A stretch of 64,000 bases of DNA, taken from NCBI RefSeq assembly GCF_003334815.1, contig NZ_QOWO01000022.1. One strand, written 5' to 3'. The stretch comes from Escherichia coli. Lineage in GTDB: Bacteria > Pseudomonadota > Gammaproteobacteria > Enterobacterales > Enterobacteriaceae. The position numbers and the translations under genes are program-made. This document shows positions 61,027 through 64,000 of this stretch, in pieces. The notes beneath the pieces are model-generated. The model saw nothing but the letters and a program-made list of their open reading frames with translations. It had not been told where the DNA came from and made no database searches. Numbering within the stretch: the stretch's first letter is position 1; every line of letters begins with the position of its first letter.

Positions 61027-61182
61027 AGAATAAAATCCGGTATATTACGGGTTACGGTATAAGACAGGTGGCGGGTAACTGGCCTTCAGATGAATATCAT
61101 TTCATCGGGTTATTGATAATGAACGTTCATGTTCGTGGGGGGATTATAAGAGTGAATTGCATTTTAGAACGGGAGCATTATT

Positions 61183-61539
61183 TTATTTCTTGCCTGTTAT
61201 TGAAACATTTCCGGTTATGATCTCCGAATGGCAGGTATCAATAAAATCACTTTTCCCCGATTGTGTGTCAAAGTCAACGTGGGTGAACCTGTGTACATCC
61301 TGCCATATGGCGAAACAGACAGGACAGGTAACAGGTAGTTTGCCTTCAGCTATTTTTTCGCAGCTTTCAACCAGTTGCTGCGCCTTGTTGTATCTGACGT
61401 TATAGCCATTTGTGCAAAGCGTTTCATACCCATGAGCTCCTGTAACTATATGTGTGGCGATTCTTTCGTGGACTCTCCCATTAATTAATAATTGTTCACG
61501 CGTTGTGATTGTTCTCATGCCTGTTTCTCTGTTGGTCAT
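61183..61539 (-). CDS. Hypothetical protein (118 aa) with CxxC motif
   Basis: ORF upstream of pilL; contains CPVC and additional Cys/His residues. Confidence 0.35.
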   Translation of the reverse strand: MTNRETGMRTITTREQLLINGRVHERIATHIVTGAHGYETLCTNGYNVRYNKAQQLVESCEKIAEGKLPVTCPVCFAIWQDVHRFTHVDFDTQSGKSDFIDTCHSEIITGNVSITGKK

Positions 61540-61634
61540 AACATAAAATAATCTGCATTCCTGAAAAATATCTCGGTTGTGAAATATTTAATTTTTATCC
61601 CCCTTTTCTGAGGGATAAAAAGCAGGCTGTCAGG

Positions 61635-61952
61635 CTATAACTGAACGCGGTTTCTGGATTTTGGTGCTAATGTCACATCTTTCCATTCACAGCTGCTTCC
61701 GGGTATACGCTCTTTGCGTCGTATTATACGGGAGTTCTGACACACAATAATTAAGCCATTGTCTGCCGTCTGAAATGGCATTATAGCGATGTTTATATCT
61801 TCTGTTGCAGGAATATAACTGACTTTCTTTTCACATGTATTGGTGTATATGACAACTCTGAATTTTTCTGCGGACATTTTCAATCCTCTTTTAAACCAGA
61901 ATATCCCGTGAGGGCATTCTTTGTGAAAAAGATGCCGGAAAAATTCCGGCAC
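61635..61952 (-). CDS. Hypothetical protein (105 aa)
   Basis: AT-rich ORF between the flotillin gene and pilL-proximal genes. Confidence 0.3.
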   Translation of the reverse strand: MPEFFRHLFHKECPHGIFWFKRGLKMSAEKFRVVIYTNTCEKKVSYIPATEDINIAIMPFQTADNGLIIVCQNSRIIRRKERIPGSSCEWKDVTLAPKSRNRVQL

Positions 61953-61957
61953 GGGGA

Positions 61958-63652
61958 TTAAACCTGTTGTGGTTCTGAGTTATCCGGAGCGGTTACCGGT
62001 TCGCTGACATCCGGAACCTTTTCCGGGGCAGGCATGACCAGTGGACGTGTCAGGGCTGTAAGTCCTTCACCGGATAACCCCACCTCCTTCAGCAGGGAGT
62101 CGATGAGCGGAGCCTGTGTTCGGTAAGCCAGAGCGGCGGTTACCGCCTGTTCAGCGAGATTTCCGCCACTTATGTCGGTTGTTGCTGTTTTACCGCGGGT
62201 AACACCGCCATTCAGGCCATCCACCTGAATGATTTTAATGCCGTCAATGGATTTCATTGGTTCTGTGGACTTCTCTATGACGGCAGGTAATGCATCCAGC
62301 AGAGCAAGACGGAACCGAAGGCTGGTCTGCTCATCCGAAAGCACGTTAATGGCATCGTTCAGTGCGCGCTGTGCTTCCGCTTCTGCCAGACCTTTCTGAC
62401 GGGTGGCCTCCGCCAGTTCAATAATTGCTGCTGCCTGGAGTTCGGCTGCTTCTTTTTCAGCCTGGGCGCGAACCGTCAGTTCAACCGCCTTCGTTTCAGC
62501 TTCCTGAGCAGCAGCAATCAGGGCAACCTGTTTGGTACGGTCGGCCTCCGCAGTCTGGCGGGTGGTTTCCACATCCTGCTGGGCCTGTACGGCTTCAGCC
62601 AGTGCTTTACTTGCCCGGGCTTCTGCCTGTGACTGCTCTTCCGATTTTGCCGCCACGGCAATGGCTCTGGCCTGGCTGGCGATTTCGGTTGCCTGCTGTT
62701 GCTCAATTTCCCGTATGGCTACTTCCCGTTCGGCTTCGACCTGGCGGGTACGCACTATCTGCTGTCGTTCGATTTCGGCTTCCTCTATCTTACGTTCAGC
62801 CAGAATTCGCGCGGATTCTGCTTCACGACGTCGTTCAGCTTCAATAGCAGCAATACTGGCACTCTGCTCTGCCGTACGGGTTTTTACCCGTTGTTGTTGC
62901 TCCAGAGTCATGAAGGCTTCCTGCTGTTCAATCTCCAGACGTCGGGAGAGTGCATCCCGGTTTTTTTCCCTGATGGCCACTTCAACATCCTGCTCAACTT
63001 CGTTACGTTCGCGGCGACGACGTTCTGTTTCCTGGGTCAGAAGGGTCAGGCCTTCAGCATCAAAGGCATTGTCAGGATTAAAATGTTCCCGTGCAGTCTG
63101 GTTGAAACTTGTCAGCGACACACTTTCAAGCTCCAGACCGTTTTTGGATAAGTCTTCCGCAACGGTGTTCTGCACACCCTGAACAAAGTTCTCGCGGGCA
63201 TCCTGTAAATCCTGCATGCTCATTCTGGCCGCCGTGGCCCGCAGGGCATCAACAAATTTATCCTCGACCAGACTACGCAGATCTTCAGGTGTGAGCGTGC
63301 GTTGTCCCAGCGTCTGGGCTGCAGTGGATATTCCTTCGGCTGATGGTTTTACCCGAAGAAAAAAGGCAACGGCAACATCAACACGCATGCGGTCGCGGGT
63401 AATGAGACTTTCAGCCGCTGCACGACTGACTTCCAGCTTCAGGGTGTTCATGTTGACGGGAATTGTTTCGTGAAAAATGGGCATAACAATTGCGCCGCCA
63501 CTCATTACCACTTTTTGGCCTCCCAGACCTGTGCGGACAAAGGCCTGCTCTGCCGATGCCCGACGGTACAGGCGGGCAAATATCAGCCCGATAACGAACA
63601 GGGTGAGGACCAGCGCAATAACGGTAAACAACCATCCCGGAAGATTAAACAT
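61958..63652 (-). CDS. yqiK: Flotillin-like SPFH/band-7 membrane protein (YqiK-like)
   Basis: 564 aa: N-terminal transmembrane anchor, SPFH domain, then a long Glu/Ala/Arg-rich coiled-coil region. Preceded by an NfeD-like gene, as in yqiJK operons. Symbol by architecture only. Confidence 0.7.
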   Translation of the reverse strand: MFNLPGWLFTVIALVLTLFVIGLIFARLYRRASAEQAFVRTGLGGQKVVMSGGAIVMPIFHETIPVNMNTLKLEVSRAAAESLITRDRMRVDVAVAFFLRVKPSAEGISTAAQTLGQRTLTPEDLRSLVEDKFVDALRATAARMSMQDLQDARENFVQGVQNTVAEDLSKNGLELESVSLTSFNQTAREHFNPDNAFDAEGLTLLTQETERRRRERNEVEQDVEVAIREKNRDALSRRLEIEQQEAFMTLEQQQRVKTRTAEQSASIAAIEAERRREAESARILAERKIEEAEIERQQIVRTRQVEAEREVAIREIEQQQATEIASQARAIAVAAKSEEQSQAEARASKALAEAVQAQQDVETTRQTAEADRTKQVALIAAAQEAETKAVELTVRAQAEKEAAELQAAAIIELAEATRQKGLAEAEAQRALNDAINVLSDEQTSLRFRLALLDALPAVIEKSTEPMKSIDGIKIIQVDGLNGGVTRGKTATTDISGGNLAEQAVTAALAYRTQAPLIDSLLKEVGLSGEGLTALTRPLVMPAPEKVPDVSEPVTAPDNSEPQQV

Positions 63653-63678
63653 AGTGAGAACCTCTGTATATGTCGGGA

Positions 63679-64000
63679 TTAAAGAACATCCGGCCAGGGA
63701 TTCAGTTCGCCCAGCCAGCGGGAACCGGAAAGACGGCAGACAATAATCACTTTGTCTCCTCGTCTGAATTCTTTCCCGGCCTCCGGCTCCAGCAACAGGT
63801 AATGAACCTGCCCAAAGCGGTCTGTGAAGCGACCTTCACAGGGGGAACCCGCCACTGCGTGATAACCGGTGATGGTGGCCATACACCCGATGAAAGCCTC
63901 CTCGGTGAGCGCCGTTGTTTCATCACGGGGTAACCAGGGGGCAATCAGTCTGCCGGTGCGGTGTACGAGAGGACATGTCAGCAGCAGGCAAAGTGGTGCA
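63679..64000 (-). CDS. NfeD-like membrane protein, C-terminal part (5' end beyond window)
   Basis: The frame is open from the window edge to the stop at 63679; a hydrophobic segment is followed by a small C-terminal beta domain. Operon partner of the flotillin gene. Confidence 0.5.

Follow-up and report, generated by a model that had tools for sequence, protein, structure and literature searches.

A conserved but dispensable yqiJK-type flotillin pair within the transfer region of an IncK2/Z I-complex plasmid

Flotillins and NfeD proteins are encoded side by side in several described systems. On the Escherichia coli chromosome, the NfeD-type gene yqiJ is followed by the flotillin gene yqiK, and the pair adjoins hldE. 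No firm function has been assigned to chromosomal YqiK (PMC10434171), and a clear function is still missing for the Gram-negative flotillins. The Gram-positive FloT/FloA systems (YuaG/YuaF in B. subtilis and FloA in S. aureus) also place an SPFH flotillin beside an NfeD gene, and FloA is reported to act as a scaffold for the assembly of type VII secretion (PMC5718613). Plasmid copies of yqiJK are already known. They have been described on the IncB/O/K/Z plasmids of S. sonnei (PMC8549364) and on IncK blaCMY-2 plasmids (PMC7824781), and existing annotation labels them yqiJ/yqiK or 'flotillin family protein'. For the plasmid context, the closest described system is the leader of the IncI1 plasmid R64, traABCD-pilIJK. 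In E. coli and Shigella, I-complex plasmids are vehicles for the spread of ESBL, AmpC and other resistance genes, and the only detailed functional work on this plasmid group was performed with pMS7163B, which is without yqiJK (PMC10286972).

The DNA analyzed here, referred to as the window, is a stretch of 64,000 nucleotides from E. coli. It is collinear with the IncK2/Z plasmid pMRY16-002_3 (NZ_AP017613) at 99.98% identity. Beyond 64 kb, pMRY16-002_3 continues through the remainder of yqiJ, traC and traB into a replicon composed of PK-repZ, RNAI and repA. An Rfam scan across the whole region matched PK-repZ with 173 bits and otherwise found only a CopA-like RNA, both of them outside the stretch from yqiJK to the pil genes. 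MOB-suite typed plasmid record L001 as IncK2/Z and MPF_I, and the annotation of this record contains the elements expected of an I-complex plasmid, namely the NusG-like traB together with traC, a pilL-V thin-pilus operon with an rci shufflon and an I-complex replicon. TraB and TraC are 66 and 37.5% identical, respectively, to their R64 counterparts. All genes of the region are on the minus strand, where they read 5' to 3' in the order traB, traC, yqiJ, yqiK, pilI, orf111 and pilL to pilV. They form the upstream end of the transfer region, the plasmid being a conjugative one of the I-complex (IncK2/Z), and the boundary between the transfer and replication modules lies about 2 kb past the end of the window. 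The end of the window itself is no element boundary.

The flotillin gene (61958..63652, minus strand) encodes a protein of 564 amino acids with a Band_7 domain at residues 35-200 (E 6e-19) and a Flot domain at residues 402-526 (E 1.3e-38). It is 82% identical to the chromosomal YqiK of E. coli. A hydrophobic stretch at residues 7-27 (WLFTVIALVLTLFVIGLIFAR), a putative membrane anchor identified by inspection, aligns with the N-terminus of chromosomal YqiK. Immediately upstream in the same orientation, and separated by a gap of 26 bp, is yqiJ, of which the 3' half, about 106 codons, is present in the window (63679..64000, minus strand). The full gene is 621 bp long and encodes 206 amino acids; its start corresponds to window position 64299 (L001 14780-15400), with a strong AGGAGG ribosome-binding site ahead of the ATG. 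The product possesses both an N-terminal membrane domain (YqiJ_N, PF21001, E 2.6e-15) and a C-terminal OB-fold (YqiJ_OB, PF07290, E 2e-14), and it is 55% identical to chromosomal YqiJ. Judged from sequence, yqiJ and yqiK form a complete and conserved plasmid-resident NfeD/flotillin (SPFH) pair. This supports two points of an earlier sequence-only reading of the window, which had recognized a yqiJK-type flotillin pair and had suggested that the plasmid might carry a membrane-microdomain module.

The plasmid pair shares its two-gene order, short gap and Pfam architecture with the chromosomal E. coli pair and is identical or nearly identical, with no structural difference, to the copies on IncB/O/K/Z plasmids such as pMRY16-002_3. 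The chromosomal pair differs in its C-terminal tail, in its flanks and in its GC content, which is 0.43-0.50 compared with 0.54-0.55 for the plasmid genes, and it adjoins hldE whereas the plasmid pair lies between traC and pilI. In contrast, Gram-positive FloT is distant. The plasmid flotillin scored 83 bits against a cut-off of 700 for NCBIfam NF058507, so an assignment as a FloT orthologue was rejected in favor of the YqiK type, and the link to a secretion machine belongs to FloA rather than to the plasmid pair. A PDB sequence search with YqiK and YqiJ returned no matches at the thresholds applied, and NCBIfam offered no families for the small ORFs, YqiJ, TraC or PilL.

Between the flotillin pair and pilL are two small ORFs, as the same reading had noted, which can now be named pilI and orf111. 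The 80-amino-acid product of pilI (61635..61877, minus strand), located upstream of the pil operon, matches PF10623 with an E value of 1.2e-31 over positions 2-76 of the 77 in the model. Its identity to R64 PilI is 32% (E 1.6e-11), and RefSeq also labels it PilI. The earlier statement that no pilI/J/K-like genes are recognizable upstream of pilL is therefore wrong for pilI and holds for pilJ and pilK, since no homologue of the R64 genes is present. These genes had also been regarded as regulators, which they are not in this system. The activators of transfer are traB and traC, just past the end of the window, for which TraDIS gave LogFC values of -5.4 and -5.3, respectively (PMC10286972).

The second ORF, orf111 (61183..61518, minus strand), encodes an orphan plasmid protein of 111 amino acids that begins at an internal ATG. 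This start and the positions of His and Cys residues are conserved among its 114 homologues, which come from Enterobacterales wherever the source names the organism. An alternative 118-amino-acid reading from 61539 found no support among the homologues. No Pfam domain was detected in the protein. A relationship to R64 PilJ or PilK was rejected, with a best BLASTP E value of 3.3, and no similarity to R64 TraD was found. The AlphaFold2 model has a mean pLDDT of 76; Foldseek searches with this model found nothing significant in the PDB and only the protein's own uncharacterized family in AFDB50. Homologues in other contexts have no pil genes adjoining. The gene called 'pilK' in PMC10286972 is likewise no PilK homologue, and that label appears to be based on position instead of homology.

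The next gene, pilL (59956..61026, minus strand), encodes a TcpQ-family homologue that is 42% identical to R64 PilL, is so annotated in RefSeq, and is the first structural gene of the thin-pilus operon. Thus traB, traC, pilI and pilL are homologous between this plasmid and R64, with the same order and orientation, while traD of R64 occupies the slot of yqiJK and pilJ and pilK occupy the slot of orf111. Sequence comparison revealed no homology of R64 TraD, PilJ or PilK to YqiJ, YqiK or orf111.

The interval around orf111 is a variable cassette or mosaic seam within the transfer region, extending over positions 61128-61653 (about 61.13-61.65 kb; no strand). In pNDM-T2 the pilI-pilL interval is non-homologous and holds other genes. 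Positions 61147-61217 are a hot spot for indels and insertions, with 75 bp in pSH267-2 and 1.86 kb of extra cargo in NZ_CP027324; toward pilL the window is 91-93% identical to these two plasmids, compared with 95-97% on the opposite side of the hot spot. Additionally, in a metagenomic relative, a K-like regulatory half joins R64-like pil genes at this same interval. A GC profile across 61-62 kb, which the sequence-only reading had proposed as a check, does drop: GC content is 0.40-0.42 over 61.0-61.95 kb, compared with 0.54-0.60 on either side, and is 0.41 in the pilI-pilL cassette itself.

These features are the ones that could favor the original suggestion that the transfer module meets unrelated DNA, to which the flotillin pair would belong, at 61.0-61.9 kb: the GC content there is 0.41, some relatives have other DNA in place of the 61128-61653 cassette, and breakpoints of recombination fall there. 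The R64 genes in the equivalent slots (traD, pilJ and pilK) are, however, also AT-rich, with GC contents of 0.36-0.43. The sequence beyond 64 kb, another proposed check, contains the rest of yqiJ followed by traC and traB, which are needed for transfer, and only then the replicon, so the flotillin pair lies within the transfer region. It is flanked by no IS, integrase or repeats, and the real border between transfer and replication functions is farther out. Moreover, the boundary reading is refuted because the same contiguous arrangement occurs in 255 plasmid records, an outcome that the earlier reading had itself named as refuting it. What survives of the junction is the seam between pilI and pilL, and a boundary in the sense first proposed is hardly credible.

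The pair has had a long history on plasmids. In a diverged plasmid lineage, yqiJ and yqiK are 88 and 94% identical to the genes described here and are likewise located between traC and pilI. Comparison with this lineage yielded dN/dS ratios of 0.105 for yqiJ and 0.042 for yqiK at dS values of 0.6-0.8, lower than the ratios of 0.21 and 0.22 for traB and traC. The pair is thus under strong purifying selection, and reading frames are intact in the roughly 265 records that contain the full-length gene. Because synonymous sites are saturated between the plasmid pair and the E. coli chromosomal copy, the plasmid genes form an old, separate lineage. Nor were they captured recently from the chromosome of E. 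coli on other evidence: the plasmid and chromosomal flanks are not homologous, plasmid YqiJ is just 57-63% identical to the closest chromosomal YqiJ proteins, and a search around yqiJK for IS ends and for repeats, direct or inverted, gave only short matches of chance size.

Despite this maintenance, plasmids can do without the pair. Conjugative plasmids have lost yqiJK through at least three different deletions, namely those of pSH267-2/pMS7163B, S. sonnei p73 and the IncK2 plasmid pNDM-T2. The deletion shared by pSH267-2 and pMS7163B is 2188 bp long with a 10-bp overlap at the junction, and pMS7163B conjugates on surfaces without yqiJK (PMC10286972). R64, pESBL and TP114 have no yqiJK pair. 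Relics of the pair also exist, among them a fused ORF of 144 bp, an internal fragment of 181 bp and, in EHEC pO26-type plasmids, a yqiJ remnant of 319 bp. Such relics and the independent deletions might suggest that the genes were captured from a chromosome long ago, no longer function and are in the course of being lost. This is highly improbable in view of the intact frames, the low dN/dS over such synonymous divergence, and the conservation of the ribosome-binding site and of a hairpin downstream of yqiK. Overall, yqiJK is an old, selectively maintained yet dispensable module of the plasmid backbone.

With respect to its role, the reading we prefer, to which we assign a probability of about 0.55, is that yqiJK, though dispensable, serves as a membrane scaffold or a stress module and is expressed along with the transfer genes. 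YqiK would insert into the inner membrane through its N-terminal hydrophobic segment and form flotillin-type oligomers on the cytoplasmic face, with YqiJ, polytopic in the membrane and ending in an OB-fold, as its partner. The location of the genes between the activators TraB/TraC and the pil operon, which includes the secretin PilN, their common orientation and their operon-like layout would favor co-expression with the transfer genes. By scaffolding and by buffering membrane stress, the pair could then aid the donor envelope in assembling the thin-pilus and type IV secretion machines or in tolerating them. The link of yqiJK to conjugation is one that we infer, and co-transcription, read-through that depends on TraB and any influence of the pair on mating are equally presumptive. 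A stricter version, in which yqiJK is a dedicated part of I-complex conjugation under TraB/TraC control, its flotillin platforms promoting the assembly of the type IVb thin pilus, of the MPF_I secretion system or of both, or else buffering the inner-membrane stress that such machines cause, is rather doubtful. If it were true, plasmids with natural deletions would mate very poorly in liquid partly for want of yqiJK; one of them is pMS7163B, whose liquid transfer frequency is about 2e-6. Our literature search found no report of a plasmid-encoded flotillin with a role in conjugation and no functional work on the plasmid copy of yqiJK.

A possible alternative, which we hold tentatively, is that yqiJK benefits the host, altering membrane physiology such as stress tolerance, motility or biofilm formation from a permissive backbone slot, without acting on the pilus or on secretion. 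The traC-pilI and pilI-pilL slots do hold unrelated genes in other plasmids, including traD, pilJ and pilK in R64, membrane ORFs in pNDM-T2 and the cargo of NZ_CP027324, and yqiJK has been lost repeatedly without loss of conjugative typing. Other YqiJK-type pairs are found in chromosomal or stress contexts rather than with transfer genes, and a study of IncK plasmids proposed that the plasmid yqiK down-regulates biofilm and motility (PMC7824781). Against a host cargo, the position between traC and pilI is fixed in two lineages separated by a dS of about 0.7, one of which has a different type of pil operon. The genes share the orientation of the transfer genes and do not move with IS elements or resistance cargo. 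Plasmids also often carry defense genes in variable slots, which is the nearest thing to support, and nothing specific, for the idea that the SPFH/NfeD pair shields the donor from phage or incoming DNA. PADLOC had no model matching YqiJ, YqiK, PilI, orf111 or TraC, and PHROG had no match for YqiJ, YqiK, PilI or orf111, so a function in defense or exclusion is very unlikely.

Given the stronger constraint on yqiJK than on traB and traC, its position and the existence of natural deletion variants, these plasmids offer a convenient system for studying the function of Gram-negative flotillins. A terminator-like hairpin lies immediately 3' of the yqiK stop codon (61932..61952, minus strand), with the structure GUGCCGGAA-UUU-UUCCGGCAU followed by CUUUUUC, which was detected by a terminator scan. 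Its folding energy is -13.9 kcal/mol (z -2.9), and the diverged lineage (L015) keeps the stem through A-U to G-C and G-U to G-C changes, so that its conservation includes a compensatory change. Together with a promoter-like site 5' of pilI, this hairpin could uncouple yqiJK from the pil operon, which would count against the preferred reading. The promoter-like site (TTCACA-N16/18) is weak, of a kind that occurs at chance frequency, and altered in L015, and it was not relied on. An RfaH-type ops element (GGCGGTAG) was also considered as a recruitment site for the NusG-like TraB and rejected: there were no exact copies, and the 22 one-mismatch copies compared with 17.9 expected are at chance level.

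Connections between SPFH proteins and envelope functions have been made elsewhere. Published work links these proteins to PspA (PMC8581546) and to the assembly of secretion machines (PMC5718613, PMC8656257). On an Agrobacterium plasmid, pspA, a yqiJ-like gene and a flotillin gene form one operon.

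From 55 kb to the end of the window, all real genes lie on the minus strand. The locus comprises the 3' half of a yqiJ-type gene truncated by the window end (63679 to past 64000), a 564-aa ORF of the yqiK flotillin type (61958-63652), an 80-aa ORF (61635-61877, the longest reading starting from a GTG at 61952), a 111-aa ORF here called orf111 (61183-61518, or 118 aa if the start is at 61539), and pilL (59956-61026). The 564-aa protein matches the Pfam families Band_7 (E = 6e-19) and Flot (E = 1.3e-38), while the full-length upstream protein, whose sequence was taken from an identical plasmid, matches YqiJ_N and YqiJ_OB. 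Their identities to chromosomal Escherichia coli YqiK and YqiJ are 82 and 55%, respectively, and the label of a yqiJK-type flotillin pair given in the sequence-only reading is therefore correct. While the gene identities are firm, the role of the pair on the plasmid is not. The same reading had recognized no pilI-, pilJ- or pilK-like genes. This was wrong for pilI, because the 80-aa ORF is PilI, with a full-length match to PF10623 (E = 1.2e-31), 32% identity to PilI of the IncI1 plasmid R64 and a PilI label in RefSeq as well. The statement stands for pilJ and pilK, since orf111 has no similarity to R64 PilJ, PilK or TraD. However, pilJ and pilK are not known regulators, as had been assumed; the transfer activators are traB and traC.

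The whole window is collinear with, and 99.98% identical to, the E. coli plasmid pMRY16-002_3 (NZ_AP017613, locus L001), which is typed as IncK2/Z, MOBP and MPF_I. Past 64 kb, this plasmid possesses the remainder of yqiJ, a 266-bp spacer and a gene whose 221-aa product shares 37.5% identity with R64 TraC. Next comes a strong terminator hairpin (-18.1 kcal/mol, z = -4.9; L001 16425-16445, minus strand, about 1.3 kb past the window end), and beyond it are the gene for a NusG/RfaH-like protein with 66% identity to R64 TraB, the replication control region of the I-complex (PK-repZ, 173 bits, and a CopA-like RNA) and repA. About 2 kb separate the window end from the boundary between the transfer and replication modules. 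In the related plasmid pMS7163B, insertion mutants in the activators traB and traC drop, with LogFC of -5.4 and -5.3 (TraDIS, PMC10286972). Because the DNA beyond the pair encodes these activators, the flotillin pair is inside the transfer region, flanked by traB/traC and the thin-pilus operon.

The suggestion that 61.0-61.9 kb marks a junction between the transfer module and other DNA, for which related plasmids had been named as the refuting comparison, is refuted. By megablast, 60900-64000 matched 542 plasmid records, 255 of which have 80% or more of it uninterrupted and in the same contiguous order, and none of the 714 matching places among complete E. coli genomes is chromosomal. The same order, traB, traC, yqiJ (88%), yqiK (94%) and pilI (71%), is found in L015, a metagenomic contig of a diverged lineage, and the pair is not flanked by IS ends or meaningful repeats.

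Nevertheless, a real but smaller seam exists within the transfer region. The interval 61128-61653, which contains the end of pilI and orf111, is mosaic, and the IncK2 plasmid pNDM-T2 has unrelated membrane-protein ORFs instead. An indel site at 61147-61217 holds an additional 75 bp in pSH267-2 and an additional 1.86 kb with two extra genes in NZ_CP027324; identity to these plasmids is 91-93% towards pilL and 95-97% in the other direction. In NZ_CP027324, an IncK2/Z relative, the insert (L014 3248-5106) is between orf111 and pilL and encodes hypothetical proteins of 295 and 141 aa, so that the slot is an insertion hot spot. In L015, the seam interval joins a K-like regulatory half to R64-like pilK, pilL, pilM and pilN, which are 65-95% identical to R64 and only 28-40% to the window. 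The GC profile at 61-62 kb does show a dip, to 0.41 in the seam interval compared to 0.54-0.60 around it. Because R64 traD, pilJ and pilK are likewise AT-rich (0.36-0.43), this dip marks a variable accessory slot within the transfer region and not an element end.

Comparison with R64, whose gene order is traB, traC, traD, pilI, pilJ, pilK and pilL, shows yqiJK in the position of traD and orf111 in that of pilJ and pilK; the swapped genes are not homologous. Both slots are variable across the I-complex. The IncI1 plasmid pESBL lacks traD and has no pilJ listed (PMC4288162), and the IncI2 plasmid TP114 lacks pilI, pilJ and pilK, although its thin pilus was still visualized and is needed for broth mating (PMC9045228). 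A lack of pilJ and pilK is therefore not unusual. R64 TraD and PilK are themselves paralogues (27% identity, E = 7e-14; L004 17693-18283 and 19350-19916), AT-rich predicted membrane proteins on either side of pilI, and the window plasmid has no homologue of either.

Searches of Pfam, NCBIfam, PADLOC and PHROG gave no match to orf111, which belongs to an orphan plasmid family, from Enterobacterales wherever the source names an organism. Within this family, His23, Cys35 and Cys68 do not vary, and Cys65 and His76 are almost invariant; these residues may bind zinc. Homologues elsewhere adjoin parM/stbA, an integrase, or primase and Ter genes, but not pil genes. Structural matches to the AlphaFold2 model of orf111 (mean pLDDT 76) are confined to the protein's own family. 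Although orf111 has been labelled pilK (PMC10286972), it is not a homologue of R64 PilK, and the label is apparently positional. Insertions in orf111 and pilI were enriched after surface mating, with LogFC of +3.2 and +2.9 (TraDIS, PMC10286972).

Between the plasmid and E. coli chromosomal yqiJK, synonymous sites are saturated (pS of 0.75 or more), and the flanking sequences are unrelated. Identity is only 57-63% for the nearest YqiJ proteins not encoded on plasmids (Citrobacter, Kluyvera, Kosakonia, Salmonella and others). Judged by this divergence, the pair is an old plasmid lineage and not a recent capture. Relative to L015, dN/dS is 0.105 for yqiJ and 0.042 for yqiK (dS 0.6-0.8), while traB (0.21) and traC (0.22) in the same segment are looser; by this measure, both proteins have clearly been kept functional. 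A full-length copy is present in roughly 265 plasmid records and K-type PilI (identity of at least 80%) in about 454. Repeated losses of the pair have occurred, and their deletion end points differ. In pSH267-2, 2188 bp are deleted, the junction shows a 10-bp overlap, and a fused 144-bp ORF is left. ORF '160' of pMS7163B has the same size and the same place between traC and pilI, and we therefore take these plasmids to share one deletion. In Shigella sonnei p73 the deletion also removes the 5' part of pilI, and IncK2 plasmids such as pNDM-T2 have two deletions, with 181 bp of yqiK remaining. In EHEC pO26-type virulence plasmids, a 319-bp yqiJ relic adjoins IS66 and espP (pRM10386-2, E. coli O26, L021 4001-4319), a trace of an I-complex backbone.

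A strong AGGAGG site precedes yqiJ, and 26 bp separate it from yqiK. Directly 3' of the yqiK stop codon is a hairpin with a U-rich tract (61952-61932; -13.9 kcal/mol, z = -2.9), which is kept in L015 with a compensatory change from A-U to G-C. The hairpin between traB and traC is the stronger of the two terminators and may point to control of the transfer leader by antitermination. No RfaH-type ops element is present, and the promoter-like site that precedes pilI is weak. In one reading, polymerase modified by the NusG/RfaH-like TraB would read through the terminators of this leader.

The pair already carries an annotation in hundreds of plasmid records and appears in at least two papers; it is a known feature with a putative membrane-scaffold or stress role. 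Chromosomal yqiJK has low native expression and no known clear phenotype, and forms punctate membrane foci on over-expression (PMC10434171). A scaffold or stress role is suggested by analogy. A three-gene cluster of pspA, a yqiJ-like gene and a flotillin gene occurs on Agrobacterium fabrum pAt1 (L026 4193-7647), which ties such pairs to the phage-shock membrane-stress system. In Bacillus subtilis, an SPFH protein is reported to connect PspA with the membrane (PMC8581546), and type VII and type IV secretion machines have been tied to flotillin or detergent-resistant membranes (PMC5718613, PMC8656257). The downstream pil operon encodes the secretin PilN. The Psp response is classically induced by mislocalized secretins.

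The principal alternative is that yqiJK is host-physiology cargo in a permissive slot, in line with the biofilm and motility role suggested for a plasmid yqiK (PMC7824781). Detailed functional genomics in this plasmid group is limited to pMS7163B, which lacks yqiJK; its very poor liquid mating, about 2e-6, is suggestive at most of a role for the pair. The best reading is an accessory inner-membrane scaffold and stress buffer that would be co-expressed with the transfer genes, useful but not required. Of the two possibilities originally offered, the membrane-microdomain module is correct and the element boundary incorrect, except for the small mosaic seam within the transfer region.

Elsewhere in the window, a TolA C-terminal-domain protein (3283-3714, plus strand) directly follows the relaxase gene, and a 1363-aa EpeA/EspP-like S6-family serine-protease autotransporter (11357-15448, minus strand) is within the transfer-region backbone. 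A divergent 511-aa CptA/EptA-like phosphoethanolamine transferase (17841-19376, plus strand) falls well short of the curated score cut-offs, among them those of the MCR families, and should therefore not be taken outright as a colistin-resistance gene. A 528-aa protein (20334-21920, minus strand) combines a TnsA-like endonuclease domain with a sigma-70 region 4-like segment.
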